Shown here: positions 105 through 49,480 of the stretch, in pieces | Layout: every line of letters starts with the position of its first letter | Numbering within the stretch: position 1 is the stretch's first letter | Assembly: GCA_051362555.1 (NCBI GenBank) | Contig: CM120646.1 | Location: 2,170,001 to 2,234,000, forward strand | DNA: 64,000 bases | Reading direction: 5' to 3' | Source of the DNA: Lingula anatina | Lineage: Eukaryota > Animalia > Brachiopoda | Position numbers and translations under genes: made by a program | The notes under the pieces: generated by a model | What the model saw: only the letters and a program-made list of their open reading frames with translations | Databases searched by the model: none | What the model was told of the DNA's origin: nothing

Positions 105-107
105 TGT

Positions 108-162
<55 letters not shown>

Positions 163-163
163 G
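105..163 (+). repeat. (TATT)n microsatellite
   Basis: Direct inspection. Confidence 0.95.
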
Positions 164-270
164 TTTTCATTTTTTACCCAGAAGACTACTTACTTGTATT
201 AAATGTTGTTGGGCAGTGTTTATTTATGCAATGAACAACCATTAAGTCATCACCACTTCTTATATTTTAG

Positions 271-1312: not shown

Positions 1313-1518
1313 ACTTGAGGAAGCATTACTCACAGCTCAATTCATGGGTCAAGTCTGGCATGGTGCCAACCTATGACAAAGAGGGTAATGTCAGTAATTC
1401 AGGAATAGCCAGAGGATCCTTGAATGTCCTATGGCTAGGAGGATTGGTGAAACCACAGGCGCTCTTCACTGCATTGAGGCAGGAAAAAGCTGTTGTCATG
1501 GAAACCACCATGGATGAG
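1313..1518 (+). CDS. Dynein heavy chain-like exon
   Basis: aacag| acceptor, GAG|gtagat donor; WLGGLVKPQALFTALRQEKA matches the dynein WLSGFF.PQ.FLTA..Q motif. Confidence 0.88.
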
Positions 1519-1801
1519 GTAGATATTTCAATGTCAATGTGAAGCAGTTCCATTCTGGATTTACAATGTTGTGAAAACGGGTGTTGCTTGGTTCAATTTT
1601 TTTCTTCAATATCAAAAAAGTGTAAAATTGCCATCTTAACAAACACGAAATGCTCTTTCTGGGCAAATTTAGGTATCTTTCTTCAACTGCCTTTGTTCTG
1701 ATAACATGAAACTGGGCTTTTTTATGTAAGATTTTTTTTAAACTGTCAGTGTTATAATGTAGTATTTATTGTGATAATTATCTGGATTATCATCCAATCA
1801 G

Positions 1802-1941
1802 ATCGCACTGAGTTGTGAAGTGCTGGAGGGTGCCGTTATAGAGCAGATGGAGGTACAAGACGAGGGCGGACTTTACATACGAGATCTACTGATGCAAGGT
1901 GCATGCTGGGATGGGGAAAATGGCAGCCTTGCTCCTGCCAC
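1802..1941 (+). CDS. Dynein heavy chain-like exon (not in ORF track)
   Basis: atcag| acceptor, AC|gtaaga donor; IALSCEV...GGLYIRDLLMQGACWDGENGSL matches the dynein GVYI.GLFLEGA.WD motif. Confidence 0.88.
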
Positions 1942-2197
1942 GTAAGAGTTTTTATTCTTCTTGATAAGTTGATAAAGTAAATGTTACAAGGATTAGAGAT
2001 GATGTTATGTAGTGTTATGTGATAATGATATTATCTATAATGACATCATAAAATAATATGATTTGGTAAGATATGTATAACACGAGTATGCATTCCTATT
2101 TATAGCAACAAACCACATTATATTTGCATCGGCCTTTATGTCATTTTACTATATTCTGTCATCTATTGAAATTATATTTATATTTTTCCCCTCCCAG

Positions 2198-2309
2198 GTC
2201 CTTCCTGTACCCCATGCCACTGATGTATGTGAAGCCAGTGATGAGATCAGAACTGGAGGAGATGAAGCAGCAGATCAGTCTGTATGATGTCCCAGTCTTC
2301 ATGAACAGG
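2198..2309 (+). CDS. Dynein heavy chain-like exon
   Basis: ctcccag| acceptor, AGG|gtaggt donor; MPLMYVKP...LYDVPVFMNR matches dynein MP.I...P...Y.CPVY. Confidence 0.85.
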
Positions 2310-3101
2310 GTAGGTGGGAGATATCACATAGCAGATCAGTCTGTACGATGTCCCAGGCTTCATGAACAGGGTAGGTGGGAGATATCACATAGCAGATCAG
2401 TCTGTATGATGTCCCAGTCTTCATGAACAGGGTAGGTGGGAGATATCACACAGCAGTTCAGTCTGTATGATGTCCCAGTCTTCATGAACAGGGTAGGTGG
2501 CAAATATCACACAGCAGTTCAGTCTGTATGATGTCCCAGTCTTCATGAACAGGGTAGGTGGTAGATATCACACAGCAGATCAGTCTGTATGATGTCCCAG
2601 TCTTCATGAACAGGGTAGGTGGCAGATATCACACAGCAGTTCAGTCTGTATGATGTCCCAGTCTTCATGAACAGGGTAGGTGGTAGATATCACACAGCAG
2701 ATCAGTCTGTATGATGTCCCAGTCTTCATGAACAGGGTAGGTGGGAGATATCACATAGCAGATCAGTCTGTATGATGTCCCAGTCTTCATGAACAGGGTA
2801 GGTGGGAGATATCACACAGCAGATCAGTCTGTACGATGTCCCAGTCTTCATGAACAGGGTAGGTGGGAGATATCACATAGCAGATCAGTCTGTATGATGT
2901 CCCAGTCTTCATGAACAGGGTAGGTGGGAGATATCACACAGCAGATCAGTCTGTATGATGTCCCAGTCTTCATGAACAGGGTAGGTGGGAGATATCACAT
3001 AGCAGATCAGTCTGTATGATGTCCCAGGCTTCATGAACAGGGTAGGTGGGAGATATCACATAGCAGATCAGTCTGTATGATGTCCCAGTCTTCATGAACA
3101 G
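2269..3101 (+). repeat. 61-bp minisatellite, about 13.7 copies, spanning an exon 3' end and its splice donor
   Basis: Unit agcagatcagtctgtatgatgtcccagtcttcatgaacagggtaggtgggagatatcacat recurs at 2269, 2330, 2391 ... 3062 with few substitutions. Confidence 0.97.
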
Positions 3102-3489
3102 CTGAGAAGAAGGCTGGGGTTTTAGTAGTATTTCTAGGGGAAGGGTTTTTTTTTTTTTGGGGGGGTGTACATTTATATAACTGGGTTATCAATCAAACGG
3201 GGGGCATATGAAAAGCAAGGTAATAGTCAAAGTTTGACATAATTTTTAACTCATGCTTTGTTGCTCAACATTTAATTTTTAACTTATGCTTTGTTGCTCA
3301 ACATTTACCCTATTCAGAGGGACCATGGCCATGAGTAATTTCCAAAAACGTTAAAAGCATTCACAATTTTAAACCACAATTATTACTGTGAAATATATGA
3401 TAAATGAACACTGAATTCTTTATGAATTTGTCCCATTCAATGATCTTATGATAAGAATATTTAATTGCTATATTTTGTTCTAACTCCAG

Positions 3490-3583
3490 GCCAGACAGGT
3501 GTGTGCCCTCACCCTACCTCTGGCCAGTAAAGATCCTGTGGAGACATGGCAGCTAGCCACCGTGGCCCTTATACTGGATCCAG
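3490..3583 (+). CDS. Dynein heavy chain-like exon ending the conserved C-terminal domain
   Basis: ctccag| acceptor, G|gtatga donor; LTLPLASKDPVETWQLATVALIL matches the dynein terminal W..RGVALL motif. Confidence 0.85.
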
Positions 3584-3830
3584 GTATGACATGCATGAGT
3601 GGACACGTGTATACATGTCCACACACACACACACACATCAAAACAGTCGAAGAAATATATAAATTCAGGCTTGCACATTGACACCATAAAATTGGCATAT
3701 TATGGTTATAATGATAAGATACTGTTAATCCTTTCTTGAAAATGGTAAATGCATGGTATCTTTTATGAATCATTATCCTCCTAATGTAATCTGTCAATTA
3801 GAAATGTGTTTCTACTGCTGTGTTTTTTAG

Positions 3831-4708
3831 GGGTCCCAGAGGATGCCCACCGTAAGCCTCGCAAGCATGCTGCAGTCAAAGCCATGCCGTATCACGTGGG
3901 TGATGCAGATGCAGCGCGTGCACTCAGCACACGCCAGGCTAACACAGCAGACCTCTTCGAAGGTGCAGAATCACAGATGGACGCTCGTATGTCTGCTCGA
4001 TCCCGTTTGTCTGCACGTTCATACCACTCCCAGATGTCGTACCGCCCCATGTCACCCCGCGCCCCTCCACTTCCACCTGACCTGCAGATGCACAGGGAAC
4101 AGGTAATGACGGAGGTGTCTGATGAGCCCGAGCAAAGTCCCAGAAGTCAAGCTGGTTCACAGCAAGGACAAAAACAACAGACAAATTTACCACAGAATAA
4201 GTTCCCCTCCAATGACTCATTGGGTAAGCAGTCTCAGAAATCTGTGGGCTCACGGAAAAAAGGTTCCCTGAACAGGCCACCTAGTGAGCAGTCAAGGAAA
4301 TCAGTTGAGGGTGGTATTGCCACAGGACCTGAGTCAAGGCCACTGAGTCGCCACTCACGTGATGCAGAAGAGGGCGTCACAGAGGGCGCTCAGGGGCAGT
4401 CTCCAAAAGCGTCTCAAGCTGGCTCAGTGAAGGGCCAATCACCAAGGGCCTCTCAAGCTGGCTCAGTGAAGGGCCAATCACCAAGAGCCTCTCAAGCTGG
4501 CTCAGTGAAGGGCCAATCACCAGCAGCATCTCAAGCTGGCTCAGTGAAAGGGGAATCCCCCAGAGGAGGGTCACAGGCAGGGTCCGTCAAAGGTCAACCA
4601 CAGGGGTCAGAAGGTCAAAGGTCACGTCGGCCTAGCCAGCAATCTGCCACTAAGGAAAGTGATGAGAACAAATCAGACTCTGAGAAACAGGCCAGTGCTG
4701 GAGAGTGA
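3831..4708 (+). CDS. Terminal coding exon of dynein-like gene: low-complexity S/Q/G/R-rich tail
   Basis: ttttttag| acceptor at 3829-3830 in phase 1 matching the previous donor; long open frame to TGA at 4706-4708. Confidence 0.8.
4394..4596 (+). repeat. Coding 39-bp (13-aa) tandem repeat GQSP(R/K/A)ASQAGSVK, about 5 copies
   Basis: Visible in DNA (tctcaagctggctcagtgaagggccaatcacca) and in the translation. Confidence 0.92.
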
Positions 4709-7498
4709 TATGTCCATTCTGAGAGAGAAACTGATACAATTGGTCATTGAACTGTTGCATGAAATTTAATTCATCCTTGATGTTAAAAATGTATTTATTC
4801 TTTCAGTGTGGAGTATAACTGCATAATATAGCTCTCAGCATGACATTGCAATCGTGGAGATAATTTGATGATGAGTAAAGATTTACTTGCTATTTTAAAG
4901 TGGAACTTTTTCGAATTAATTTTATATTGATATATTACTGCTGAGGTGTCTCAGAAGGGAAACTGTATATTGTGTAAGATTTGTTTCACTAATATAACTT
5001 TTATACATGAAATACATGTATGTGTTCTACATAAGACATTCATGAAAACCCGTCCATGTATCTAGGCACACTGTGATATGTTAGGTAATTGTATATATAG
5101 GAGATGTACCTAATTTTACTTGAACTGAACTGCTGTTTTGTGTTGGGAACGTTTGTTCCAATGATCTTTTTGTCATTTGTTCATTGTGATTGACAATTTT
5201 TTGTGTAATTTTTAGAGGATCAATGTTATAAATTTTGATGAAAAATGTTTATTGTTGTTTATGGGTTTTAACTGAATAAGTATTATTTTATTATAATTCA
5301 TTATTTGCCTTTTAACTGTATGCTAAATGCATATAATTGTTTTCATATTCAAATTTGATTGTAGATCAGTTTCCTTTTATTTTCTTAGTATTTTTAAATA
5401 AATTTTCTTTGAAAAGATTCTGGGCCATCGACAAGACCCAAGTTGACCTTGAAAACATTAAAAAGAATAATACTTGGACTTCATATTACAAGAATTTATT
5501 CCTCCCTCTGTCTCACATAAACAATTAAGCTAGAATGCTTAACAAATAAATAATAAATAACACGATGAGATTTCAGTAACACCTTATACAATATAAGTCA
5601 ATATTCCTAATAACTGTAACGATGAAAGTGCAAATCTAATAAATACAGCTTCTAGGTTATTTTTATAACAAATCAACCAAACAGCTATTTTTTTATTTGC
5701 AGGTATCAATCTAGGACCTGTTGAAAATTGTGAAGCATTTTATATGGCACATCAGTTCATTTGTTTTCACCCTGACAATGACAAAGTTTTTTCTGTTTCT
5801 ACGATCTTCCAAATCTAAGAATTTATTACATTTTCCCAGACATAACCAATTGTAGGTACTTAATATTATGGATATAATTTGACAAGAAAAGGATGTCTAT
5901 TCATTCTACCTTATAAATGTTAACAAAATGAATCAAATTTCATACCAGTCCTTGAAATGAATTGGATATAGAAAATCAAAAGTATTCTATTACAACCTCA
6001 ACAATGGTTTTAATATAAATAGTAGTAAAATTCACCAATATACCTCTTAGTATGCTGTGCTTTTTGAAAAGAATTTTTTTCTTTGTGGTCCTATCACCTA
6101 ATTTTCACAGGGGTTCTTAAAACAGAAAATGGAGCTTTCTAGCTTGTCATACCCCAGATACCAATATGTACCTGTGAATTCTGAACACCACAATCAACAA
6201 GAATGTAACAGTGCGTGGCAATTTTCAATTTTCCCCTAAAACCTTTTACAGATGTGATATATTATTTGAAATGAGTATCTTTGCCAGCTCCCTCCAGAAT
6301 ACCTCCAACTCTTTTTTTCAGTGAAATAGACCCAAACTCCACAAAATCAAAACACTGACAATATCCGCAATTCTTCTACATGAAAATACAAATGGTTCAT
6401 TTTCATCCTAAATGTTACAAAGTTCCCAGTGAGACTTGAAATGTTCAAATTTTTACTGATGAAAAACTATCAATGTGCTGTATTGTGATAATGATATTAA
6501 TGATGTGTGGAGAATAAAATGGGTGAGAGAAGGCTTGTACATAGACCAACAACACTGCCATAAAACATGAAATTCCACCAAAAACACAACAATAGCACCT
6601 GTCACCAATGTTCATATCAATAATTATAATAAATGAAAAAAAAAATCTCCCAAATGACTACCCTCAATTCTGTTTCAGAATGTCGTGGAATTGCTCATGA
6701 AAAGAAATAATTACACATTCTAAAAACTAGTTCCCATTTCTGTTATTTTAAAATCTTAATTCCTTTTCCCTGAAGCTTCTATTTCAGTATGTTAAGATAG
6801 ACAAGACGGCAGCAGCAGCAGATCGGGGTTTCATGTAAGAAGAAGACAAAAGCATAGGCAACCTTCTGTCACACTGTTGAACCAAAACTGGTTTAGATGT
6901 TAATCAAGTCACCAGACAGATGTACATATTAATCAGCCAGTGCTTTAATGGCAGGAAAGTTGAGGAAGCTTTCATCATTGAACACCTACCCCCACTCCAG
7001 CTCTCCTCTGTCTAATCATTTGCCTCTCTGTTATAAGGATGGATTAAAATGACTGGCATATATTCATTCTGCTGTCAGGTGACCAGTTATGAACTTTAAC
7101 CTTCTAAATGTAAAACTTCCAGCACAAGGTGCCTAGAGCATACCAGACATTAATAAATTCTTATACATGAATGGAATTCTTCATTAGAACTACAAGGAAT
7201 GAGTGATAAAAAAAAGAAGTACGTATAAAGATTTAAAGCTGAATTCAATTCACCATTTCAGAGGAGAACAATAATTTAAGTTGATAAGAGTATAGGCGTC
7301 GTATAGATGTCTTAATATATTTTTCAATCACCATAAAACTTGTGTTTCCTCCCATTTTTCTAAATACTCCTCTTCAGTACAATCAGATCAAGGTTATTTT
7401 TCACATCATCCCTCTCAAAAAACACAAATAAATAACGAAATAAAGAACAAGAAGGCTTTGACCTCTTCTGACAAAAGGTGACCTTGACCTTCAATGAC

Positions 7499-8046
7499 TT
7501 ATGCAGCCTGGCTGTTGTCAAAAGATATTGTTCCAAACCCGTTCTGTTTGCACCCATTCATCTCGACCGCACTTTGTGGGTTCGTACCATCTTGCTCATT
7601 CCGACTGTCAATACTATCCCTGCTTACTTCATGGTCATCGAGTTCATTTTTTAACTGTTCTTCATTCTCCAAGCAGTTTTTGGTACTGCCATTTTCACAA
7701 ATGTCACTGTCACAACGACTATTTTCAAAGTCACCATTTTGTTCTCCCATCAGGTCATCTTTGGGTTCCTCTTTAACACCGTCTCTGTTGCAACTTCGTG
7801 CATCTTCATTTTCCTCGTCAAATGTTTTTTCCTTCATCCCGATCAGTTCCTCTGCAAACTCTGCCATGCCATATTGCTGTGCAATACGCAGGCCTTCATC
7901 GAAAAGGGTCTCCTGTACGAATTGTCTTGTTTTTTGTGGATTTGCCTTTGGTGGAACTCTGTAGAAATCATGTCTAGAAAAGTCCAGATCTTCTTCGTGT
8001 CCCTCGTGTTGAGGAGATGTGCTCCCACTTGGAATATTCGAAGAGT
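7499..8046 (-). CDS. NAB: NAB terminal coding exon (core exon 10)
   Basis: tttttgaag| acceptor, phase 1; QETLFDEGLRIAQ resembles the NAB2 C-terminal QQTLMDEGLRLAR motif; contains VKEE SUMO consensus; TAA at 7499-7501. Confidence 0.85.
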
Positions 8047-8389
8047 CTTCAAAAATATAAAATTTATTCAGTGAAATAGCTTTGTTCCTTGTATAATGAT
8101 GGTAAAAAGGAAGATTGGATCTAAAGGGGCAGTGAAGTGACTTCACCTTCAGATGCTCAAAGTGTCAACAAACAGCCAGATGGGATTTATATATCTTTGG
8201 CACAATGGGCTTTCTTAATCAACGCCTCTACACAAAGACACCAAATACATTCAGTCTAAGTCAAAACTTGGTTTAGAAGACATAAAATTCTTTGACTGAC
8301 AAATACTTCTAGGTAAAAATCTTCTGTCTTCTGATTCTTGTTTACGATAAGGTTGTCTAAAACATCCAGTAAAGTTAGGAAATATTTAC

Positions 8390-8448
8390 CTGTGCCATCA
8401 TCCTCCAATGATGTATTTCCATTAGTGGCTTTCTTTGTCATGTTATAA
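8390..8448 (-). CDS. NAB: NAB core exon 9
   Basis: Poly-T tract cag| acceptor, G|gtaaat donor; phase 2 to 1 links exons 8 and 10 in frame (YNMTKKATNGNTSLEDDGT). Confidence 0.75.
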
Positions 8449-8775
8449 CTGAAAAAAAAAAAAAAACATTTGTAAAATTATAGAAGTTTAGTTAATCATG
8501 CTTTTAGCATAAAAATAAATTTAGCACAATGCTTTTACAACTTTCTTCTCTTTTAAAGGATCCAAATTTCCATTTTTTAATGATCTGTTATAGACTAAAA
8601 AAACAAAATAACAGATATCAGTTACAAAATTTAATGTTCACTAACTGCTCAAAATAAAAAGAGATATTAAATAATGTTATTTTTAGTTTCTTTATTGATT
8701 TTTAATGGATATTTTGGTGTAAAATCATTAATATCTGAAAAAAAATGTCAGAACGACCCAGACTCTATGACTCAC

Positions 8776-8981
8776 ATTTGAGATCTCCGTTGTCGCCGTA
8801 TAATTTCACTTTGTTCTGTCAGAAGTTGCAACTGCTTAGATGTTAGATTTTCTAACTCTGTTTGGAGTTCATGGATTCTTGGAAAATTTTCTTCATCTCG
8901 TGCCAACTGAATCTGTGTCTTTACTTCCTCTTGTTGCTGGGCAACTTCGTGAAGCTCCTGATTAATTTGCGTCATTCTCTC
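8776..8981 (-). CDS. NAB: NAB core exon 8 (coiled coil)
   Basis: ttctcag| acceptor, AT|gtgagt donor; ERMTQINQELHEVAQQQEEVK...LQTELENLTSKQ heptad pattern. Confidence 0.82.
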
Positions 8982-9715
8982 CTGAGAAGAAAGAAATGTG
9001 CTTAACAGTCAGATTCTAGCAGATATTAAAAGAACAAATACTTATTTTCTTTTAATTTTTTCCCACATGCATTTCTTAGTTCCAATTGGAATTTGAGTTA
9101 ACATCAAACAACTGTTAAATTCACAGGCAGATTGAAAAATTATTATCACCATTTTTCAAGTTGCAAACATTTGTCAAGTTTTAGGGACCCAACAGTTGCC
9201 CGCGTCAGTCAAAAGAAAGACATTCTTGTATCATCATATTCATGACACCACATGAATGCACTCTCACTCATATTTGTGTTCAACTTTGCTCCTAGTATAT
9301 AATTATGATCTTAGTATTTTCTTAACCATTATGATGACCTCTTAAGGCCCTTCCACATCAAGCATTCTGCCTTAGCATTTCTTCCTTAGTGCAGTTTTAA
9401 GAAATTTCTTAACAGTCTAACAGCCAAGTTATTGTGTATGAAAAATGCCTAAATAGAGTTTATGTGCTTGACACTTGCTGATTAATAAATAATTGATAGT
9501 TTCAGATAAATGATGCTTTGCTCATATTTCTACTGTGTTGAATAAAAAGTACTTGCTCCAGGTAAAACTTTCATGCAAAGAGCAGGAAACAAACTACTAA
9601 AACCCCCTTCAGTGCAATTTACATTATATAATCACTCAAACCAGAAAGATGGTATGCTAACACAGAATACTCAATGTGAAAAGGATTCAAAACATCTTTT
9701 TAAGTGCTCACTGAC

Positions 9716-9836
9716 CTCTCTTTTGATTTGGTCTAATTCGGCCTTGACTGACTTGGAATTGAGATCGTGTTGACGGTGAAGAACGCCATCTATCCTCGGT
9801 TTCTTTAATGGACTCTCCCCTGGCATAACACCAGAC
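9716..9836 (-). CDS. NAB: NAB core exon 7 (NLS-like PLKKPR)
   Basis: tttcaag| acceptor phase 2, GAG|gtcagt donor; SGVMPGESPLKKPRIDG...SVKAELDQIKRE. Confidence 0.82.
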
Positions 9837-9888
9837 CTTGAAAAAAAGTTTAAATGATTAAAATATACTGAAGAACCAGGCTGACAGA

Positions 9889-10117
9889 GGACCCACTCTC
9901 AATGAAACTATCATTCTCGATCCAACTCCGTGGGAACTCTCACTGAATGCAACTCCTCATTCTGGCATTGAGTAGAATACAGAAAAGCTGATGATTATAT
10001 GAGTATTTTGAAAACAAGAGGAGGTAGCTTTATCTATTAATCTGATTGCATTCAGCGAGAGTCCCTGCAGAGTTGGATCAATCTGTGCAGAACAATAGTG
10101 TTATTGGGAATGGGTCC
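9889..10117. mobile_element. Palindromic MITE, family B
   Basis: ggacccactctcaat...attgggaatgggtcc termini; inner arms gatccaactccgtgggaactctc / gagagtccctgcagagttggatc; related copy at about 35195-35645. Confidence 0.75.
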
Positions 10118-10752
10118 ATATTTGCTGGAAGTGAGGCATCTCTCTGGATGGAAATGCGCTAGTTGGGATTGCTATGCTGCTTCTCTGGCGCAATGAATAC
10201 TTGGAGTCGGGCACAAAACAAAAAGTTATGTAAACAATTAATATTTTTTTCCACAATGAATGAATAATGCAAATCTTCCCAATAATACGATTGTGCTTTA
10301 AAAGATCCAATAATAACTTTGAATTAAACGGTGCAAGTAAATTGATAACATTCTTTAGTGACAAATAAGAAAAATAAGAGGGGCTTTGCCTATAAAATCA
10401 TATTATTTCAAACTGGGCAAATCCTTAAACCACAAATGAAAACACCCCTATCACCAAACCCTGCAACAAGTCTTATTATTTTCAGATAGTATTTATAAAC
10501 ATTCAGCCTTACTAAAATCACTCTAAATGCACACCCTTTTTCATGCAAAACTAAACCAAGCATATCCTTTAAACATCATAAATGGGGTAATATTCAGCTA
10601 AAAATTCCTTTAAAAAAATCCCACTAGAATTCGCCACCTGCAATGATTCAGCCAAGACCTTTTCCCAAAGAAAAAAAATAAATAAATCATTTCCTAACCA
10701 AAACAATCCAGCAGACAACATGCATTTCCCAACAATGAATGCATCTGTTTAC

Positions 10753-10815
10753 CTGCTGAAGTCATTCCAGGGAATTTCAGGGGAACTATTGCTAAGGTCC
10801 CATGCAAATTTTCCC
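10753..10815 (-). CDS. NAB: Candidate NAB cassette exon (63 nt, phase 2-2)
   Basis: ctttccag| acceptor, CAG|gtaaac donor, open in NAB frame (GKFAWDLSNSSPEIPWNDFS), four TGCATG motifs nearby. Confidence 0.55.
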
Positions 10816-12018
10816 CTGGAAAGTTGAAAGTGTTTTTTCTTGGTATAAACTGTAAGACTGTGCAAGCACAAAAGAAGACACATGCAACTTTTGCATTCTT
10901 GAATAAAACATGGATATAGAACTATCAGACAACTCTTAAAAGGGATGAGCATATTTACAGGTGCTTTTTTTATTTAGAAATGTGGGATTCCATGTTGAAA
11001 AGTCATGTCTCATCTGGTGTTTCAATTGGAAATACGTGACTCAGCCACTGAGGCAGAGCAAATCAAAATACAGGGACGTCTCATGGCAAACTTGGTAATA
11101 CGCTTCGCTGTTCAGAACCAACTTTCTATTCTTTTCTATTTCTCACCCACCTTCAGTCAAAGTGGAAAAATAACAGGTTTTACTTTAGCCAACAGGCATC
11201 GAAATATCCCTCATTATTTTTAATACGTCCTTGTTTAGATGAAACAATGTCATTGTGAAAATGGGTCAGTTTTTTTAGCAACTTACATACATACATAGTT
11301 CAGTTCATACAGGCACAGTCATTCACTGAGGTGTCCAGTCAAATATTTATGGGAATCTCTATAACTATACAGCTTAGCTAGATCTACGTAACCATGGTTG
11401 CAGTAGCCTTCACAATCCATTGCTCTGAAACTGCTCATTCTTATAGTGAGAAAAAAAATTGCTTTTCTGTGATATTTCCCTTCCATGATCCAAAACTTTC
11501 AACTGACAACATTCACAAAGAGTTCTAAACACAGTTACTTCTAAAAGCAATGATGAGCAATGGTCACCTGTGTGGTAATCATAAAACAAAAGCAGCGGTT
11601 TCAGACGTGCACTATACACTATACAGTGTGGAATTCTTCCTTCACTGGTTGCAGTGCATGCATGTGTTCTGTAGTGTCAGAGAACGAGAAAAACATTTCT
11701 GCTTGCATGTTCCTATACACTCGAGTATGCGTGAATGCACGTTTGTGTCTTTTAGTCTAAGAGCATGTGTACATAGTCTAGTAGGAAGACTTTGACCAAA
11801 AATTGAAGAATGACAGGAGCTTCTGTCTTAATCTCAAAAGAAGTACTGGAAATGTATTTATCAACATAGGGTATTTAAAATGCATTTCATTTATCAAAAT
11901 TGGGTACAGAAATGTAGGCAACACAGCTGTCGTGAAGAACACACACTTTGCTACTGAGAAAAGCTCATTCAATGTGAAGACTACAGCAACCAATCAAAAA
12001 CCATCTTACTTTGAGTAC

Positions 12019-12152
12019 CTGGAATGGCCCTTAGAATATTGGTAGCCACTGTCTCTTACGACCTGGCGTGCGAGTGGGAACAAGTCCTCTCTTCGAGTTA
12101 ACAGCGCAGGCATTAGCTTACATAATTGGGCTGCTCCCTCGTTCACTGAGAT
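12019..12152 (-). CDS. NAB: NAB core exon 6 (NCD2); alternative in-frame donor ends the exon at 12010
   Basis: ISVNEGAAQLCKLMPALLTRREDLFPLARQVVRDSGYQYSKGHSR matches NCD2; tttccag| acceptor; donors gtactc and gtaaga. Confidence 0.95.
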
Positions 12153-12430
12153 CTGGAAATGAAGAATGCTTGTTTGTAATAATTCCATAGTTTAACAGTA
12201 TAAAATGTTATCACTCTATCTATTTTGCAGAATAAAAACTTTTAGTGTTTTTAGAAAGATTTCATAAAATAATCAAACTGATTATATTATCACTGAAAAA
12301 AAAGGCTGATAACATTTTTCCTCGCTTTCTCATTTATTTCTTACAGCTCATGATATCTTAAATGGACTTTCAGACACCAATACCCTGTTTAATAAGGCAA
12401 ATTACAAATGAAATTAAATGGATCACGTAC

Positions 12431-12550
12431 CTCGTGCAAGGACATGGGCTTGTCGTTCTTTCTCTTAGAATCGAAGCGCCCATAGATAGCAGCATACTTT
12501 CGTACCAGATCCATGCGGTCTGGATGACTGGGATCCATGTTTATCACCTC
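12431..12550 (-). CDS. NAB: NAB core exon 5 (NCD2; not in ORF track)
   Basis: EVINMDPSHPDRMDLVRKYAAIYGRFDSKRKNDKPMSLHE contains the NCD2 hallmark RKY.AIYGRFDSKR...SLHE; ttttaag| acceptor and GAG|gtacgt donor. Confidence 0.95.
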
Positions 12551-15500
12551 CTTAAAATAAATCATAGAAATAACGTCAATCCACCATTACACCTTATACA
12601 TATTACTTCAAAGACATTGTATTGGAATGTCTGAAATGGTATGGAACATACTGCCGCTCAACTTGCATCAAATAGTGTCAAAAGATGGTTTTATAAAAGA
12701 ACTGAAAACATATCTTTAAAAAAAATTAACAACTGAAGTTGTTTTAAGTGTAAATGTTATTTGAAAAGCATCCTTTAATTTGACTTTGTAACTATAGTTT
12801 TATAGCTTGTTTTTGATATTACAATATTTTAGCATTTCATTGTAAAATCTACTGAACTTTTAAGGATTTAAGTCTTTAAATTAATAAATATTTTTATTAT
12901 TTTATTATTATTATTAGAAGAAGAAGAAACCACGAAGAAATGTCTATGTGGACTTGAGACCGGGGATCTGAGAACCAAGAAAAGAATCAAGAAAACCTTG
13001 GACTTCCAATCAGAAGTGAAACAAAAATGTCTGAATTTAGGCTATGACAAATATAGGTCATTATCAATTTAAGTATTGCAATGTTTAAATCTTATCTCAA
13101 AATAAAAATAACAAGGAAAATAAGTGGTGAGCTATTAATATGTTAAATTTGTCAGGTTAAAAAAGGACTAAAAACTGGATGGACAGAAGAAAAGCTGATA
13201 AATTCAATGTTTTCATTGCCTTTTTGCCTTTATTAAAAACCCTTTATGTTATTTTTTACAGGATAAAACATTCACACCTGTCATAAAAGGTTTAAAACAA
13301 TGTGCTACAATTGGGCCAGCATAGATTCAATGCACAAATTCCAAAAAGAGTGAATCGAATATCTGTATTTAATATTTACCATATAAAAACAGTCTACCAT
13401 TACCAAGGTCTCTCTCCATACAAAGGGTGGCTGCTGTGCTTTTTCATTTTTCTTTCTTTTATTTTTCTTTATTATTTTTATTATTTTATTATTATTTATT
13501 TATTTTTTTTTTTTTTTTTGCATTTATTATGTGAGATACTGTATTTTCCAGGAAGATCTATATACACTGCTCTATCTGCATATTAAACAAAGAGCTCCAC
13601 AAGTTTTTATCTTCAAAATCACCCTCATACATTTTCATTTCATTTTTTTGCACTTCAACTCACTATCATGTCATGGCCAAATAAAGTAAATCTTAATCAC
13701 GAGCAATTCTTCTCTTTAGTCTGCTTAAAAAATAAAGAGCTTATTACCATTCCGTCATAATCACACCACCCATAGACCAAGGCCATATAAGCTCAAATAA
13801 AAACCAAGCCAAAAATATCCCCGCACAGAAAGCCATATCATTCATTATTTCTCTCTCCTAACCATACTCCAGTCGTATCACTTTAAAGTGACGCAGTTTT
13901 GACGCACTGCTTTTGTGACTCATTTCCTGAGCCCACCCCCATAAAGAAGAAAAAAAACTCCACACTGCTGTTACATACAAATTTAATGTGTCTTACTTTC
14001 ATCTTACTTTCTCTGTTGATATGTTTATACAGATCATCTGTGGAAATTTGATGAATCAATTCTCGTTTCTTTAATTCAATACAAAACAAATGGACTTCTG
14101 CAGATGTCACGAAAGGAATGTTTGGAGGTGGGGGGGGGGGTACTTAATTCCACTTCTTTCATTTTGCCACGTTGTCACTGTTATATAAAATGCTTTTAAT
14201 TTGTTGGTCTACCACCCACATCAACAGTTCCTTAAAAATATTTGTATTTTGGAAAATCAATATTAAAAGTGAAACATAATACAACGGTACTGTACAACAC
14301 ACACATATTCATGCATGAATCAGAGTGCTTTTTATATGATAATCTTTTCTTATTAACTATCATCTGACAACAAATCCGGTAGATATCTACTAGATTATGC
14401 GTACCATGTCCAAGAAGTCACCTGTTATCTCATATAACTTCATGTTGCCACTACATGTATCAAGGAAGGTAGAACACCAGCAAACAACTTGTGAGATAAT
14501 ACACTGTCACTCAAGCAATATATGCCATGAACACCTCTCTCTCTGACACCCTTCAAGGCACATTTTGTGAGAGGGTGTCTGTTTATCACTTGACATACAT
14601 ACCATGAGAAAGTGCTAGTATTTCACGGAAAAACACCCCTTAAACTGAATAAAGTCTACATTTCCGCAGTCATGTAACATCTCTAGGTATGTATTTAAGC
14701 TTATTATGTCAGGGCTAATCAGCCACAGTCTTAGACTTGAGACAAATTGAGTCAAAAAACCCACCACCAGTTCTCTTAGTGCTATGAAATCTTTGGTAAA
14801 TTGCTTTTATCAATTGTATGGTGATTTTTATTGTGTTCCTGTAAGTGTTTCAGTGTAAGTGTAAACACACCCTTTGAAATGATAAATTTGGAAAGCAGAT
14901 GGGACGTGTGTCAAGAGTCGGCCATCTTGGTTCAGATCTACAATGCTCCACCCAGATAAACTCGTTCCCCTTTCTAGTGTTAAGTATTCTATTTTTACTA
15001 CATGCAAATATTTAAGTTTCCAAGTCTATGGTGGAACCTCCGCATATAAAGTTATTTTTATTCCGGAATTTTTTGTTACTATTATTATTGGGTGCAAATA
15101 TCAAAAGATAAAAAAATTCTTATGAAATTCATCAAACACCCTTAAAAAAAATTAATATTCAAAGTAATTATCTTCAAAAATAACAGAATGTTTTCGTCAC
15201 AAGATCCCCCCCCCCCCCCCCCCCCCCCCCCACTACCTTTCAAGGCAAAAGCTAACAGAACTACACGGTTGTCATCATTCCTCATCTTCAGAAACTTCTC
15301 CATGAAATGAAGCAAAGGAAACAAAAGAGATACCAGTCTGACAGTGTAGTCTATAAAAGTCTTTTTAACAAGTAATGCACAAGTAATGCACCCTTTCCCC
15401 AATGCCTCGGTGTAAGTTTTCCTCAATTCCTATGGTCAGGTTTCAGTCATTTCCCTCTCCCCCACACTCCAACAATAATGGGTTCTTTGCATGGTCTGAA

Positions 15501-18500
15501 CGAAGAAGTGGGCGGTGAGGAAAAAAATCAAATGTGGTTTTGTGCACTTTTTTTTGCAGTAGAACTATTGCTACCTTACACGCTTTTATCTGCTACCAAA
15601 AGTAATAGTGACTTTTAATTTTTTCCTTTTGTTTAAATGAAAATGATGAAATAATAAACTGTTGCAGAAACATTCAGTTATTCATAACGTTTCAGCTTAT
15701 GGTAATGGCTTGAACATTTCAACCAGAAAAAATTAACAATTTTTCAAATACATAATTTAGGAATCATAAAAAATACATTTCTGTGAAGCATTTTATGAAA
15801 AAGAAATATTAGGTAGTCTGCTTTTCAATTTGTTGTTTCCACTCAATAGGAATGTTTTAATTTTATGACTTATTACTTGAAAAAATTAAGTTTCTATAAA
15901 ATTCACAAATTTCCCAGTTGAAATTATTGAGTCAAAACCATATTGATAAATTTTATTTTCAAGAGTCTAGGATGAATCATGGTTTGTAATATTCTATTTA
16001 AACACTTACATATGAGGCAAAAAATGAATGTTTGCAGCTAAGTTTCAATGTGGATAAGTTATCAGATATTATTCATTAAGCACAAAGTCTTTTTTAAAAG
16101 TGTAAGCCTTCAGTTGGCATCTGTCCCTATATAGCAAGTCCTTTGCAGCTCCAAGTGCCTACTTTTTTAAACAGGAAGTTCTTAAAAACACACATTAAGA
16201 AAAAGAGAAAAAAGGGTTACAAATTATTTCCCACAGTTTTCCCTCCCTTTTTAGAAGTGGCTCTGCATGTGAATGAAGTGCTTTCTGCTTCTCAATTGGC
16301 TTTATATAAAATAAAGTGGGTCCACTCAATATCCCATTGCTTAAACAGTTCATATTTGTACAAATTTACTTTGATTTGATAAGAACCGTTTTGAATTATA
16401 TTTGAAAATTAAAATTATTCTAGATGTGATGCAAGCTTCAAGGTGTTATATGAAACTAAATGCAGCTAAATTTACACCTCATTTCTAACCAGTTGATAAA
16501 AAAACTCTTACAAAGAGAACTATAATTTTCCAATTTCTCCTTTTATTAACCCTTTCCATATTCCAAAATGTATTTCCAACAAGCTGTGTACACAGGATTT
16601 CTAACCACCCTGACTAGAAACAACAAAATCAAATCAACTTAAAAAGCAAGCAATTCCCCCAGTGCAGATAAGCTGGGGTCACCATTACAACCATTTCACT
16701 TGATAACACGTTCCAGTGAAAAAAATCCCCACAGATTTCTTGGCATCAGAATAAGATTATTAAATTTTAATTCTGGATATTTATAACATATCAATAAGAA
16801 GGATGCTGCTAATATTCATTTTCGAAATTATTTGAAAATAGTGAAAAAGATAATGCAATAACATACTTAATGTAAAATGCTGTTTTGAGCCATTGCATAA
16901 ATGCTCTGTTATGCACAATAAGTTAAAACAGCTGCATTTTGCAGGAAATTTTTTACAAAATTTTTTGAAGTTCTTTAGGTATTCAAACATAAACTACCTA
17001 GAGAAATGACTGACAGTTGCAAAGCATGGTGGGTAAATCAAAGGAATGAGAAAACATCATGTAAACAACATCATGTACTTTTTAAATATCGCAAAATCGT
17101 TTTTGCAATGATCTTGATAAAATTTGAGTGTAATAACTACAAAAACTGACAATTTTAACAATTCTCTAACAATTCCATTTCTAGAACTTCATTATCACTT
17201 CATTCAGATGGCCTCGAAACTTTAAGAATATGTTTTACATTTTTAATATCAACCTTTTGAAAATATTAAGTCTGTCAACGTGTCTCAAACTTGTAACAAA
17301 ACTTTTGAATGATGCGATAAAATAATTGTCACCACTCCTATTAGGTAGATAGACTTCAAATGAATCTATTAAATTAACCTCATGTTCTTCGGGATAATCA
17401 TATGTAAATAATGCATATATCTGACAAAGACTAAGTAAACTTCACTTAAACATTTTGGTACAATTCCTCTAATAAAAAAACTATGTTAACAAGATTATGG
17501 CTTATGTTATATAAATAAATTAAACATTTTACAATATAACTTTTGTCCCTTTTTCATCTTTGAAGGAAGACTCAATTTTCCATTATAAATATAAGACAAA
17601 GCCGTAATAACTACAAGTCATGACTGACAGCAGATCAAGATTTCAGAGTATCCCGAATTTCAGATCTTTGGAGAGTATGAGCATTATATTAAAGTCTCCA
17701 TAACATCTAAATATGAAAAGGCAAAATTATCCTCTTGTTTACATGTGCTGAGTTTATATTCACAATTACCGTTATTTACATTACAGCGAATAATGATCAT
17801 CATAAACCTTGGCCTTTGTTTCCATGCAAGCAATTATATGTACACTGTAATGCGCTATACCCAATTGTTCCCTCAAATAATATATATTGCCATAAAATTA
17901 TTTCGTTTTCTAATTCATACACCTAATGTAAAGAATTAGTCACTTTACAGGAATAAAGTTTCTGTCAAAAGAATTTAACATTGTGTTTGTCTTAATCCAA
18001 ACGTTTTAGTTCTTCTGCTGTAATACTAATTGCATACCAAGGAATGTATTAGTCTCTTCCTACTGCAAAATCATGAGTGCAACGGAGTTTTATTCAATAT
18101 TTTGTTCATACGCCATTAATCATGGAAAAAGTTTCATAGGCAAAAAGATCCCTCAGTTTCTAAACACCAAAATAATAGAGTTCAGAATATACTTAAGCTT
18201 GTAACTTATGTGTAGCATATTAATCTAGTCATAATCAAAGAAGACTGCCATGATCTACTGTCACTTTTGCGTCGCCTACTGGTCTAGCGTAAAATGAGAT
18301 GCGTCCCTAAGTCCCTAAAGCCAGATCCATGACAAACTTTTTTTCCATATATCGAAAAACTTCTCTCCAACTCTTTCATCTCAATGGCACACAATTTTGG
18401 GAGATCTTTTATGAGTCTGGAACATTTCATTTGATGAACTTCTTCCAGATATTTGGTGAAAAAAATCGAAACTATAAATTCTAAAATGAATAGTTTGGTC

Positions 18501-18700
18501 AACACAAAGTGGATTTTAAAGCCACAACCATGTGGTCTATTCGACTAATGCTTTTAATGATATCCAGCTTCTGTAACTGCAGAGAGCAATTTCTAAGAAT
18601 GCCCATAGCATATAATAACTTATGTGCACCTTATTTCGAACACCAATCATAGGCTTCCATTGCTAAAACATCCACAGTTTCAACACCAATTACTTTTTGT

Positions 18701-19642
18701 TTAAGCATCGTCTGCGGCTGCAATAGTATCGTCTGAGCCTGCCATAACAGCAGAAGCAGTAGCACCACTTGTAGTATCAGCAACATCATACGAATCATTG
18801 TTACTGTCATGGCTACTGTCATTGTCAGCACTGTCATGTTCATTAGTATTATTAGCAATATTGCTATCATTGGTACTGTCCTGGGTGTCGTCATGACAAT
18901 AATCTTCATTGACTTCGACAACATAATCATCCACTTTGACTGGATAGCCATCCCCACTATCAGTCGATGCCATTTGAACTTTCAATGGTTTCACAGTGGC
19001 AGATTTACGAAATGTCACCTCAGGATGGCGGGTCCGAAATCCCTCAAACCAATCATATCCTGCAATGCCATTACGAAAGGGATGGCTTCTCCCGCTGGCA
19101 TCAGCAATTTCATAGGCCTTCCTCCTGACGTCTAGGCCTGACACGCCCTTACCCTGCTCTCTACTCTGCTGCATGTACTCCACAATGAGCTGCTCTTCCT
19201 CCATAGAGAGAATGGTGCGGGACGTCTTTGTTGTGCCCGTACGGTTGGCGTTATGCTTCCCATAAGGCAACTCAGGGTGACGGTTTTTAAACCCCTCGAA
19301 CCAATCAGCGCCTGCAATACCATTGCTAAATGGGTGAGACCTACCGCTGTCTTCGGCCAACCTGTATGCCATTCGACGGCAGTCCATCCCTGTCACAGTC
19401 TTCCCCGAGGCTCTCTTTTGGAAACAATACTCAACAATCTGCATTTCTTCTTCTGGCATGAGAATCGTTCTAGGACCTGGTCTACAAGATGGCGGCAGCC
19501 TCCCAGCAATCCTCCGCTGAATGGCATCTCTAGGTATCCCATAAGCCTCGGATGCTTTACGGATGGACAGCTTTCCCGCTGCAATGGAGTCGCATGCAAC
19601 TTCCATGGTTTCCTCGTTCCAGTGTCGCCGTGGTGATGGTTT
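18701..19642 (-). CDS. Pipsqueak HTH + 2x CENP-B/Tc5-type HTH + acidic tail; probable alternative last exon of NAB (pogo/Tigger-type DNA-binding module)
   Basis: RHWNEETMEVACDSIAAGKLSIRKASEAYGIPRDAIQRRI (psq pattern); two RTIL..EEE..IVEY...G......RR.AY..A...GRSHPF.NGIAG.DWFEGF..RHPE repeats; frame opens exactly at cttcttgctgcctag| (19643-19644), phase 0; no DDE domain. Confidence 0.85.
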   Translation of the reverse strand, partial: KPSPRRHWNEETMEVACDSIAAGKLSIRKASEAYGIPRDAIQRRIAGRLPPSCRPGPRTILMPEEEMQIVEYCFQKRASGKTVTGMDCRRMAYRLAEDSGRSHPFSNGIAGADWFEGFKNRHPELPYGKHNANRTGTTKTSRTILSMEEEQLIVEYMQQSREQGKGVSGLDVRRKAYEIADASGRSHPFRNGIAGYDWFEGFRTRHPEVTFRKSATVKPLKVQMASTDSGDGYPVKVDDYVVEVNEDYCHDDTQDSTNDSNIANNTNEHDSADNDSSHDSNNDSYDVADTTSGATASAVMAGSDDTIAAADDA

Positions 19643-20469
19643 CTAGGCAGCAAGAAGACGCTGAGTGTCACTTTACTACACACAAAATTCTAGATATTTG
19701 GATTATTCACAATTTTCTTAAACAAGCTTTTGACCTCTGTTTAGACATGTTGGACTTTACAAAATCAATATCTATCATTCAGTATTATCAAAATATATTA
19801 ACAGACTCGCAACAGAAAGCAGAGACCAAAAAAACTTAGCACTCTGCTACATTAAACACTTAGCCTTACATATGGAATCTTAAATTCTGAGCGACTACCT
19901 TTATTTATTAACAGCGCATCATTATTATTCTTATTGTTTTAACATTTTTGGGCACTTGCCCTCTAGTGCTGCACACTGAGATGACCCAAACTATCGACTA
20001 ACTCTTCACAGTATTACAATTACATATCAGCATCTTGTACCACCACAATTGTAGCAATAGGGATAATAATTTCAGTGAGCTAGTACTTACAATTGAAATG
20101 ATCCAAGATTCATATTATCTTAATTTTAGGTTATTCAGAGGGTTGGTTAGAAATGAGATGTATTGCTGCATTTTATTTCGAATGTTTCTTTCATTTATTG
20201 AAATCTTTATTTGTTTGTCTTTTTTTAATTCATGCGTTTTAGCTGAATTTTGAATGTGGCTGTTAAGCGTGTTGTCTTTTAGTGTGTACCTTTTCATTTT
20301 TGTTCTTTTTTCCCTTTAGCAGTAGCCAGCATAAACTTCAATTTTCTGTTCATTTTTTTTTCTTTTTTTTTTTTTTTTTTTGTGACATCATTTCCATAGC
20401 CATAACATTTACATCAACCCTCATATCTTTACTCTTTTCAAACAAAAAAAAAGTTGACAGTAAACCTAC

Positions 20470-20637
20470 CTCTATTTCCTTGTTAATCTGCTTTCTCATG
20501 TTCATTGGCTTTGGTTCAAACTGCGGTAAAGTTGGCACAAGTTTTTCTGCAGCCTCTGCGATAGCTGCAATTTGGCTTTCTACGAGAACAGGTGTCGGAA
20601 TGGGAGAATCACTATTGCGTTTCAGATCAGCATCGTC
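20470..20637 (-). CDS. NAB: NAB core exon 4 (start of NCD2)
   Basis: ttttgcag| acceptor, GAG|gtaggt donor, phase 0-0; PVLVESQIAAIAEAAEKLVPTLP...KQINKEIE. Confidence 0.9.
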
Positions 20638-22634: not shown

Positions 22635-22885
22635 CTGATGATTGCTGTCTTCTCTTAAATTCAATACTGGCGATAGCCCCGCCCCTCCGCCAGACGGGCT
22701 TGGACTAAGAGAGTTGGTCGGCCTGGCTGGCTGAGGATTCCACGTTGGAGCCGTTACTACATTTGGTCCACTACTAGAGGGGTAAATGGCGGAGAGGCCA
22801 CTTCGTACTGAGGTGGTCAAAGGGCTAGGTTGAGCTGAACCGCCCGAGGTCGGCGATGAACCTGTGTGGGGCTGCTGGAACAGGG
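22635..22885 (-). CDS. NAB: NAB core exon 3 (end of NCD1 and S/P-rich linker)
   Basis: ttcctctag| acceptor phase 1, CAG|gtaagt donor phase 0; ALFQQP continues DWVANP as in vertebrate NAB. Confidence 0.92.
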
Positions 22886-22940: not shown

Positions 22941-23109
22941 AAGGCTGTATTCAGAACAGTGGACTAACTAGGTCAAATATGGCAAACCAACTAAAAAGCT
23001 CGCCATCTAATCAGCTAATAGACACTGAATAGATTCCCTGTGGGAAAGTATTCAAGCTGGTCAACCATATTTGATCTGCAGACTTGTTAGCCGCTGTTGT
23101 GAATGTGTC
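22941..23109. mobile_element. Palindromic MITE, family A (diverged copy)
   Basis: ggtcaaatatggc...ccatatttgatctgcagac arms shared with copies near 23795, 31960, 41200 and 48003. Confidence 0.7.
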
Positions 23110-23588: not shown

Positions 23589-23726
23589 CTGGATTTGCCA
23601 CCCAGTCCTGTAGCGCCTTCTGTAACCTGCGTACATGCAGGGGTTTGCTGGCCATTCCAACGAGCGCCATGATCTCCAGAAACTCTTCCTCCCCCGCCTC
23701 GCACAGTTGCTGAACATCATCCCCTC
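23589..23726 (-). CDS. NAB: NAB core exon 2 (NCD1)
   Basis: [46 protein letters not shown] is essentially the NCD1 consensus; canonical splice sites. Confidence 0.97.
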
Positions 23727-23794
23727 CTACGATTAAAGAGAAAACATTTAGTATTGATGACAAAGGGCATTTTCAGAACAAGCGGAATGACAAA

Positions 23795-23913
23795 TCTGCA
23801 GATCAAATATGGCCGACCCACTTGAAAGCTTATGCCAATCCCATAATAGTTACTGAACAGATTCGCCATATAATACGTTTTCAAGTGGATCAACTTTGGT
23901 TGTGAATGCGGCC
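23795..23913. mobile_element. MITE family A, partial copy
   Basis: gatcaaatatggccgacccacttgaaagctt...ttcaagtggatcaactttggttgtgaatgcggcc. Confidence 0.75.
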
Positions 23914-31599: not shown

Positions 31600-32114
31600 T
31601 AGGCCATATTCACAACCAAAGTTGATCTGCAGACTTTGAGGCCATTCAGAATGAGAAGAGCCGAGTACTAGCTAGGCCATGGCCTAAATATGGTGGACCT
31701 ACATGAAAGGAAGACAGCTTAATCCTGTAATGGTCTTTCCACCTCTCACACGCCTCCCCACATGTTGTTCCTCGACTGGTTGAATTTAGGCCGAGATTGA
31801 ATTACTGTGCCCCTGCAGAGTCAGCGCGTGGGGAGGCACATGAGAGGCAGAGATACCATTACACGATTTAAGCGGTCTTCCTTTCATGTAGGTCCGCCAT
31901 ATTTAAGCCGTGGTCTAGCTAGCACTAGGCTCTTCTCATTCTGAATGGCCTCTTACAGACCTGTGGATCAAATATGGCCGACCTTACTGCATAATCCCCA
32001 CGGGGCATCTATTCAGTGTGTATAAGGGGATTATGCAGCAAGTTTTCAAGTGGGTCAGCCATATTTGATCCACAGGTCTGTTAGTTCAAGATCAAATTGT
32101 ATAGAATGCACCCT
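31600..32114. mobile_element. MITE family A copy interrupted by a nested hairpin element
   Basis: Left end aggccatattcacaaccaaagttgatctgcagact; resumes at 31953 with acagacctgtggatcaaatatggccg...cagccatatttgatccacaggtctgt. Confidence 0.75.
31638..31952. mobile_element. 315-bp fold-back MITE (family C) nested in family A
   Basis: GAGGCCATTCAGAATGAGAAGAGCC terminal inverted repeat; arm complementarity continues for more than 100 bp. Confidence 0.88.
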
Positions 32115-41561: not shown

Positions 41562-41664
41562 CTTGAGCAATGAAGATATCAAAGTATTGGAGCAAATTGG
41601 CCCTCTGTAGAACTCTATATAGCTGGAGCTCTGACTGGCTGCTCGGCACCGTGGACGTCATCAT
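41562..41664 (-). CDS. NAB: NAB first core coding exon (start of NCD1; not in ORF track)
   Basis: [35 protein letters not shown] matches NCD1 [15 protein letters not shown]...FI.QG; G|gtaagc donor; acceptor aatttcag| at 41710-41711. Confidence 0.96.
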
Positions 41665-42274
41665 AAGCCGTCCTTGATTGCACGCCTGTCCCTTTTGTAA
41701 TAAATAAAGCTGAAATTAGAGGAAATTCATTTTTTGAAAACAGAAAATTTTAATAGACTTTTTCCTGCAAAAACAAAAAATACAGAAACTCAAACTGTTC
41801 TTCAATTTAAACTAGGCCTACACATATCCCAGATTTTAATTATTAATGTGCCATAGTCCTAAAATGGTTATGCAACATTTAAATAAATATTAAATGTTCT
41901 CATGTGCCAGGGGGATTGTGGATGTCACAAATAAATCATAAAGATAAATATCGCTTTCTCTCTGTTGGAAAATAGAATCAGTATTAAAATCAAAAGAAAA
42001 TTTAATTCAAATGAAATATTTTTTCATTCAAAAAATCATTGACAAATAAATATTTGCCTCTTCCAATGATGAAGATTTTAAAATGCTGTTAGATATTTTC
42101 TGAGTATATCCAGGCAAAAAAAAAAAAAATGGAAACAACAATAATGACAATGTGGACACCCTTTTTAGACTACAAAAAACAGTTCATCGAACAGTCAAAC
42201 ACTGTTTATATGTCTGTTGATATGTATTTTTCTTCGTGTTTACATCGTGTGAGCCTATCCTGAATCTCGTTAAA

Positions 42275-49222: not shown

Positions 49223-49480
49223 CGAATCACTTCTGTTGTTCAACAAAGAGCTTGCGCGCACGGACAGATCACGACAATCTCGCGTCCGGGGAGGAGGCAG
49301 CGGCGGCAGAGAAGGGTACGACCGTGGATTGGAGCTGTGTATCAACCCCGGTGGCGCAGGCAGAGAATGTACTGTGTGCGGCATATGTGGTGCTGTCTGC
49401 GCTAAAGAGGCGGTGTCGCTGTGGGACGTTCTTTCCGGGTAGGTCAACATGGAGTCAGCGCCTGAGGTGTAGGCAAGCAT
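49223..49480 (-). CDS. Candidate upstream coding exon giving an N-terminally extended NAB
   Basis: GC-rich island with 86-codon P/S/H-rich frame from ATG to TCG|gtgagt (phase 0), in frame with the stop-free 45 nt upstream of the NAB ATG; acceptor tttgcatgcag| at 49558-49559. Confidence 0.45.

Follow-up and report, generated by a model that had tools for sequence, protein, structure and literature searches.

Lingula anatina NAB has an alternative last exon for a predicted DNA-binding module of the pogo/Tigger type

Introduction

The fusion of host genes with transposase sequences is an established mechanism. In the primate fusion CSB-PGBD3, a domesticated transposon open reading frame in an intron of ERCC6 serves as an alternative 3' terminal exon joined in frame, and the host and fusion products both come from one locus (PMC2268245). 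There the element is a piggyBac, the whole transposase is retained and the host is a chromatin remodeler (PMC2268245). In KRABINER and other KRAB-transposase fusions, a transposase DNA-binding domain (DBD) is joined to a host regulatory domain by alternative splicing. In this tetrapod survey, DBDs made up 76.5% of the captured domains, and capture via alternative splicing and fusions with the DBD only were a common pattern (bioRxiv 10.1101/2020.05.07.082677). In the tumor fusion NAB2-STAT6, a somatic rearrangement that brings in a known activation domain, the NAB N-terminus with its NCD1 domain is retained and the C-terminal repression parts are swapped for foreign domains (PMC11554739). Pogo-derived factors with CENP-B and HTH-psq domains, including LCoR, belong to the same DNA-binding fold family as the module described here, but are separate genes (PMC10027918).

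A host-transposase fusion of the CSB-PGBD3 and KRAB-transposase kind is present at the NAB locus of the brachiopod Lingula anatina, and its host partner was not found to have been described before. The domains are fused in frame, the junction is spanned by RNA reads, and the captured domain is under purifying selection. Both features of CSB-PGBD3 named above, the in-frame alternative terminal exon in a host intron and the two products of one locus, are shared by the Lingula gene. Unlike CSB-PGBD3, the Lingula fusion joins to a transcriptional corepressor only a pogo-type DBD, in which one helix-turn-helix (HTH) is duplicated and which is followed by an acidic tail; no equivalent of the dispersed target elements of CSB-PGBD3 (MER85) is known in Lingula. 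The KRAB-transposase fusions resemble the Lingula fusion in that splicing joins a transposase DBD to a regulatory domain of the host. They differ in that KRAB represses on its own, whereas NCD1 in the Lingula protein binds partners, and most of the repressing parts of NAB are missing. What is kept of NAB recalls NAB2-STAT6, but the Lingula fusion is a germline alternative exon.

The BTB genes lola and mod(mdg4) splice a constant N-terminal interaction domain to many alternative DNA-binding exons. Lingula NAB has the same layout, but one alternative DNA-binding exon was found, in intron 4.

An earlier note on this DNA knew of no description of a NAB fusion of this type. No NAB-transposase fusion was found in the literature searched, a search that lay mostly outside subscription papers and outside the supplementary tables of two fusion surveys. 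One survey reportedly screened 10 million eukaryotic proteins for fusions with transposable-element domains. 'NAB' has 0 occurrences in the main text of the tetrapod survey (bioRxiv 10.1101/2020.05.07.082677), and LOC106152439, XP_013381467 and NCD1 have 0 occurrences in five supplementary files of PMC10027918. The protein was nevertheless already modeled in RefSeq, as an unnamed and uncharacterized isoform, X4.

The NAB locus and its alternative exon

The window is the whole stretch of 64,000 nucleotides that was analyzed, and the features of the locus are collected in Table 1. Isoforms X1, X2, X3 and X5 of LOC106152439 are canonical NAB proteins, whereas isoform X4 (XP_013381467.1, here P0003; Lingula anatina, 656 aa) is 100% identical to the translated exon over the module and combines SAM_NCD1, HTH_psq and HTH_Tnp_Tc5. 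All three domains, for which the earlier note had proposed a profile search, were matched in this protein by Pfam. Joining exons 41664-41562, 23726-23589, 22885-22635, 20637-20470 and 19642-18701 gives 533 aa that correspond exactly to residues 124-656 of XP_013381467.1. In isoforms X1-X4 (X2, 741 aa; X4, 656 aa), upstream exons add 123 N-terminal residues. This extension is proline-rich and is encoded by exons 49480-49223, about 48496-48430, and one that extends to 41709; isoform X5 starts at Met 41664. The canonical protein had been given as about 615 aa; it measures 618 aa from Met 41664, and the X1-X4 forms are longer by the 123 residues.

Table 1. Features of the NAB locus in the window, from upstream to downstream on the minus strand
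Feature	Position	Strand	Basis or remark
Upstream coding exon of RefSeq NAB isoforms X1-X4 (residues 1-86)	49223..49480	-	tblastn of P0003/P0021 on the window, 100%
Exon 1 in the numbering of the earlier note: conserved NAB start Met (41664), first part of NCD1	41562..41709	-	alignment with 29 other NAB proteins
NAB exon 2, second part of NCD1 (SAM) domain	23589..23726	-	
NAB exon 3, low-complexity linker, phase-0 donor	22635..22885	-	no listed reads to 19642
NAB exon 4, first third of NCD2, phase-0 donor	20470..20637	-	joins 19642 (reads) or exon 5 (RefSeq models)
Left arm of imperfect inverted repeat of about 40 nt	20144..20179	.	lead
Alternative exon, DNA-binding part (psq HTH and two Tc5/CENP-B-type HTHs), 215 aa	18998..19642	-	Pfam, AlphaFold2, spliced reads, variants
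Alternative exon, acidic Asp/Ser/Asn-rich tail and stop codon	18701..18997	-	poorly conserved relative to P0002
Inferred 3' UTR of fusion mRNA	16520..18700 (lower end approximate)	-	read depth, AATAAA at 16547
Right arm of inverted repeat, about 50 nt beyond AATAAA	16452..16491	.	
Downstream canonical NAB exons (rest of NCD2, coiled region, C terminus), not in fusion	7499..12550	-	tblastn of P0021; exon 5 acceptor 12550

The fusion carries a whole NCD1 (SAM_NCD1 positions 2-79 of 79, E 7.5e-45 in Pfam). NCD2 is matched at positions 2-41 of 125 only, below the Pfam cut-off, and the C-terminal region is absent; the canonical isoform P0021 has both. The earlier proposal that the fusion lacks an intact NCD2 is thus consistent with Pfam, with the refinement that exon 4 supplies the first third of the domain.

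The alternative exon is a minus-strand frame of 313 codons without a stop (19642-18701) inside NAB intron 4, and it is the one copy of the module within the 64-kb window. It opens at a pyrimidine-rich acceptor at 19642 whose TAG is itself the in-frame stop just upstream, and it matches the phase-0 donors at 22635 and 20470. Its domain content is as the earlier note had read it. HTH_psq occupies residues 10-48 (E 6.4e-8 in Pfam) and is followed by two HTH_Tnp_Tc5 stretches (E 8.8e-18), which have 45 of 68 residues in common; the last 91 residues examined contain 23 D+E and 1 K+R. The G+C content is 52% in the HTH part of the exon vs 31-32% in the surrounding intron. A stand-alone gene starting from the first ATG (codon 13, 19606) was rejected, as the earlier note had argued: this codon falls within both the psq match of Pfam and the first helix of the structure prediction, a start there would cut the domain, and reads enter the frame by splicing.

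Other features were observed at the locus and among NAB entries. Canonical NAB has small splice variants: isoform X3 lacks three residues (window about 12019-12010), and isoforms X1 and X5 have an 18-residue insertion after NCD2 (about 10815-10750, a range read by eye). Scorpion and sandfly NAB entries (P0007, P0008) with doubled NCD1 regions look like gene-model artifacts. A dispersed MITE- or SINE-like repeat of 80-130 bp, often in local inverted pairs, occurs in NAB introns (23782-23869, 22970-23090, 31966-32081, 41214-41354, 48032-48185). A convergent neighbor gene has exons at 203-4708 (+), and its final frame contains tandem 12-residue Ser/Gln/Gly-rich repeats.

Splicing into the exon and the 3' end

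Four of nine Lingula RNA runs (X1, X4, X7 and X9), with 6-30% of each run sampled, were mapped to 16300-20340. The junction from exon 4 (20470) to 19642, one of two for which the earlier note had suggested a search, was found in 11 reads from two of the four runs and two of three studies. Loose read ends occur at 19644 in run X1 (7 reads, median 118 letters) and run X7 (4 reads, median 62), and the loose letters match the window once, from 20472, which is the 3' end of exon 4. The two-base offset (19644/20472) is the AG common to the exon end and the acceptor. Runs X4 and X9 have no junction row listed, and run X4 has zero depth at that place. Run X1 covers the frame at a depth of 6-23; the bin above the acceptor has 1.1, positions 19810-20079 have 0, and positions 20080-20340 have 0.9-2.3. 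All mapped reads of runs X1 and X4 have the first mate on the plus strand, which indicates minus-strand RNA given the usual stranded libraries. The reads show the step from exon 4 to 19642; exons 1-3 on the same molecule come from the RefSeq model.

The other proposed junction, from exon 3 (22635) to 19642, would keep the frame open and give 477 aa; no loose-end row was listed for it in the four runs at the sampled depth. Of the two fusion sizes that had been predicted, about 533 and about 477 aa, the reads at the exon 4 junction and RefSeq X4 bear out the former. A 952-aa UniParc model (P0006), in which the exon is not the last but an internal one that ends at a donor at 18914, was set aside as a probable prediction artifact: the donor is weak, and no loose-end row was listed there in the mapped RNA reads.

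In runs X1 and X4, read depth continues past 18701, where the earlier note had suggested a search for 3' ends; it is uneven and low, reaches the 16435-16569 bin and is 0 below. Since this end lies beside the AATAAA at 16547, a 3' UTR of 2.2 kb was inferred; the mapped reads showed no poly(A) end. Loose read ends at 16730, 17026, 17725 and 17778 (runs X1, X7 and X9) fall in the inferred 3' UTR and probably reflect divergent alleles or a repeat.

The main claim of the earlier note, that NAB has an alternative last exon for a DNA-binding module of the pogo/Tigger type, is supported by the spliced reads into 19642 and by the variant pattern described below; the exon is confirmed to be real and expressed.

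Variation and selection

Within-species variants were taken from reads of at least 95% identity to the window; 40 of the 57 are listed, 16 of them in the frame. Fourteen of these 16 are synonymous, vs an expected 22-27%, and in the HTH part of the exon all listed variants are (11/11). Both listed amino-acid variants sit in the acidic tail, and there is no frame-breaking indel among the listed variants in 19642-18701. The binomial P for the synonymous excess is 1e-6 or less, a value that is indicative only and overstated, because the rows are linked on few haplotypes, 40 of the 57 are displayed, and the reads had to reach 95% identity to be mapped. The captured module is under purifying selection: the pattern is that of a selected gene and not of a decaying transposon piece.

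The divergence of runs X7 and X9 from the window suggests a distinct Lingula population. In run X7, 3 of 30 exon 4 letters differ from the window, all of them synonymous, which shows the junction in use in a population that has clearly diverged.

Relatives of the module

Among 597 candidates in a word-indexed search of proteins of near length, one relative was found, P0002 (Logan, 304 aa, 67% over the module). Its psq-HTH-HTH-acidic layout is the same, with no match to DDE, and its tail is also acidic (14 D+E of 79 residues). P0002 begins two residues before the aligned region, which could be explained by an unspliced exon whose reading starts at an ATG in the intron. No ortholog in a known NAB context was found. 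A search of longer proteins gave two matches among 1328, P0003 itself and P0004 (psq+DDE_1, 29%). In a profile search of 1.84 billion representatives (3016 hits), P0003 and P0002 were the only close relatives among the 150 listed; the other 148 have at most about 42% identity over psq and HTH1. Catalytic regions were found with their own profile in 35 of the 148, and P0136 (psq+Tc5+DDE_1) is 40% identical to the module over the first unit. No match to the NAB N-terminus was obtained among these 148 relatives, nor to the module in 119 other listed NAB proteins (of 1663 hits). For the database check suggested in the earlier note, the listed matches include no NCD1+psq protein besides Lingula X4; they also include no second close Lingula-named protein. 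With one close relative and no other listed NCD1+psq protein, the module looks lineage-restricted, and by sequence comparison it looks like an old capture of a pogo-type DBD.

A tree was built from 47 rows and 121 columns, comprising the 45 best of 127 hits that cover at least 105 residues and the pair of P0001 (the module) and P0002. This pair (100/100) lies inside a 33-row clade (99/94) with eight DDE-bearing rows, on a stem branch of 0.61, and its sister branch is weakly supported (90/42). Of 404 pattern matches in metagenome contigs, 0 were confirmed. In the ESM Atlas, the module leads to arthropod-rich psq/Tc5 clusters; the fused region gave no usable feature match there, a result that bears on neither absence nor novelty. 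Two proteins from Sphagnum and Selaginella (P0126, P0130) carry five or more psq(+Tc5) units, with no DDE among the top five families shown, and are possibly separate domestications in early-branching land plants.

Predicted structure and proposed mode of action

An AlphaFold2 model of module residues 1-215, based on a 34-row alignment (pTM 0.54, mean pLDDT 85.8), has three units of three helices each, and residues 133-141 form a flexible linker. Foldseek found nothing for this model at E <= 0.001; its top three matches, all weak, were the Pax6 paired domain, CENP-B on DNA and the LCoR HTH (PDB 2COB and 1HLV are among the structures). The best solved sequence match of the module is likewise the LCoR HTH (E 1.3e-4), and LCoR is a corepressor with a psq HTH. 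From its family membership, the module is predicted to bind DNA. NCD1, which drives NAB multimerization, is classed by Pfam as a SAM domain. A two-copy NCD1 complex prediction scored 0.00 in both runs, which says nothing either way.

Nab2 has no DNA-binding activity and binds the R1 domain of Egr-1, with NCD1 mediating the interaction and NCD2 regulation (PMC2768752); the background given in the earlier note holds for Nab2 to this extent. A C-terminal CHD4-interacting domain ties NAB2 to NuRD (PMC11554739). Splicing of exon 4 to the second acceptor in intron 4 would give an mRNA for NCD1, part of NCD2, the psq-HTH-HTH module and the acidic tail. The three HTHs would bind a DNA motif, plausibly descended from the ends of the old element, and the intact NCD1/SAM domain would bind EGR-type partners and oligomerize with full-length NAB. 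Lacking the C terminus and the greater part of NCD2, the fusion would be an adaptor that recruits the full-length NAB repressor to sites without EGR elements, repression being supplied by the recruited protein. How often exon 4 is spliced to exon 5 rather than to the internal exon would then set the ratio of cofactor to adaptor. This mechanism, in which the HTHs sit on DNA and NCD1 recruits EGR partners and full-length NAB, is proposed tentatively, as plausible but not quite probable.

The fusion could instead be an antagonist of NAB or an activator, with NCD1 occupying EGR partners or poisoning NAB oligomers and the acidic tail activating, in loose analogy to NAB2-STAT6. Such a role would suit a protein that is missing most of NCD2 and the whole C terminus and whose tail is acidic in both relatives (23 D+E of 91; 14 of 79 in P0002). 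NAB2ex4-STAT6ex2 likewise retains NCD1 but is without the CHD4-interacting domain and part of NCD2, and NAB2-STAT6 proteins are activators (PMC11554739). However, the tail is poorly conserved and holds both listed amino-acid variants, and three conserved HTHs would be needless for a pure antagonist; this role is considered unlikely.

An inverted repeat around the exon

The acceptor, the frame and the AATAAA are enclosed by the two arms of an imperfect inverted repeat, which match at 80% with gaps. A 19-nt core starts with TA in both arms, and the likeness continues past it. A partial third copy of the arm lies at 16589-16607, and a half-match at 18625-18640. All comparisons with shuffled sequence were post hoc: 6 of 200 shuffles were as good for the ungapped 19-mer, 9 of 200 for the gapped DNA score, 0 of only 7 for the RNA duplex of -44 kcal/mol (best -31.9), and 0 of 500 for a pairing-aware score of 58 (best 57.5), which was also matched by 0 of 32 real tiles. 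Pairing is slightly better in sense (-44.9) than in antisense (-40.6). The significance of the repeat varies with the score used. It is treated as a lead only, since it could be what is left of a terminal repeat, an element that loops out RNA, or a chance likeness.

A more elaborate form of the adaptor mechanism would have NAB work in two modes. The isoform would nucleate full-length NAB on sites inherited from pogo, and the terminal repeats would pair in the pre-mRNA and so loop the exon out; the fusion itself may also bind them. The transposon would then have given the DBD, its targets and a splicing switch. This version is regarded as a long shot. Given the lack of a catalytic remnant, surviving terminal repeats would need deletion or selection on the arms.

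Origin of the exon

The exon probably arose from a pogo/Tigger-type element that entered intron 4 and came to serve as an alternative last exon; its catalytic half was lost and its second HTH was duplicated. Transposase relatives align from positions 5-9, i.e., the module begins where transposase proteins begin. The case for direct insertion at NAB is weakened by the approximately 40% identity of the nearest transposases and by the 90/42 sister branch. An autonomous pogo/Tigger transposon was rejected, since no DDE_1 after the HTHs was found in intron 4; a six-frame search with a profile of DDE-bearing relatives gave negative best scores for the catalytic region, and tblastn likewise found no remnant.

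The absence of a DDE remnant anywhere in intron 4 would also agree with an exon derived by duplication or exon shuffling from an older host gene of the psq/CENP-B type, as would the long stem branch, the lack of a close transposase, and the fact that DDE-less psq+HTH host proteins are common among the matches. Against this origin, the frame is intronless and begins at the transposase start, the protein searches gave no closer Lingula paralog, and the inverted repeat encloses both the exon and the poly(A) signal. A host-gene source is therefore judged improbable, and local insertion is preferred.

The relatives also bear on whether the module alone was selected, for example for silencing copies of its parent transposon or as a CENP-B-like chromatin protein, with NAB giving a promoter, a start codon and nuclear delivery and NCD1 being incidental. 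Selection was seen in the module only, that on NCD1 being accounted for by the canonical isoform, and anti-transposon defense is among the roles speculated for CSB-PGBD3 (PMC2268245). Yet the 148 further representatives that were listed include no close transposase and thus give no sign of an active parent family, and NCD1 is kept whole and in frame; selection on the module alone thus has little probability. A recent, near-neutral exon trap, i.e., leaky splicing into a functionless transposon fragment, might account for the few junction reads and the low, uneven depth over the inferred 3' UTR, but it is largely refuted and very improbable in view of the 14 synonymous variants of 16 listed, the absence of a listed frame-breaking indel, and the 67%-identical relative P0002 that keeps the three-HTH layout, also without a DDE domain. 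Overall, the best explanation is a spliced NAB fusion in which a likely domesticated pogo-type DBD would let NAB bind DNA by itself, and it is held with moderate confidence.

Concluding remarks

The reach of this finding is limited by the lineage-restricted look of the module, by a fusion mechanism that was already established, and by a protein model that was present, unnamed, in RefSeq. Within these bounds, host-transposase fusion, which has been surveyed mainly in tetrapods, is extended to a developmental regulator of a brachiopod. The Lingula fusion is a germline counterpart of the NAB2-STAT6 layout, with NCD1 tied to a predicted DNA-binding module without the whole of NCD2. NAB proteins act via EGR-type partners because they do not bind DNA, and the Lingula isoform provides a route by which an obligate cofactor could become a sequence-directed factor without gene duplication, DNA binding being predicted. 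One NAB locus would thus give rise to the usual cofactor and to a predicted DNA-binding version, which would likely bring NAB complexes to new sites.
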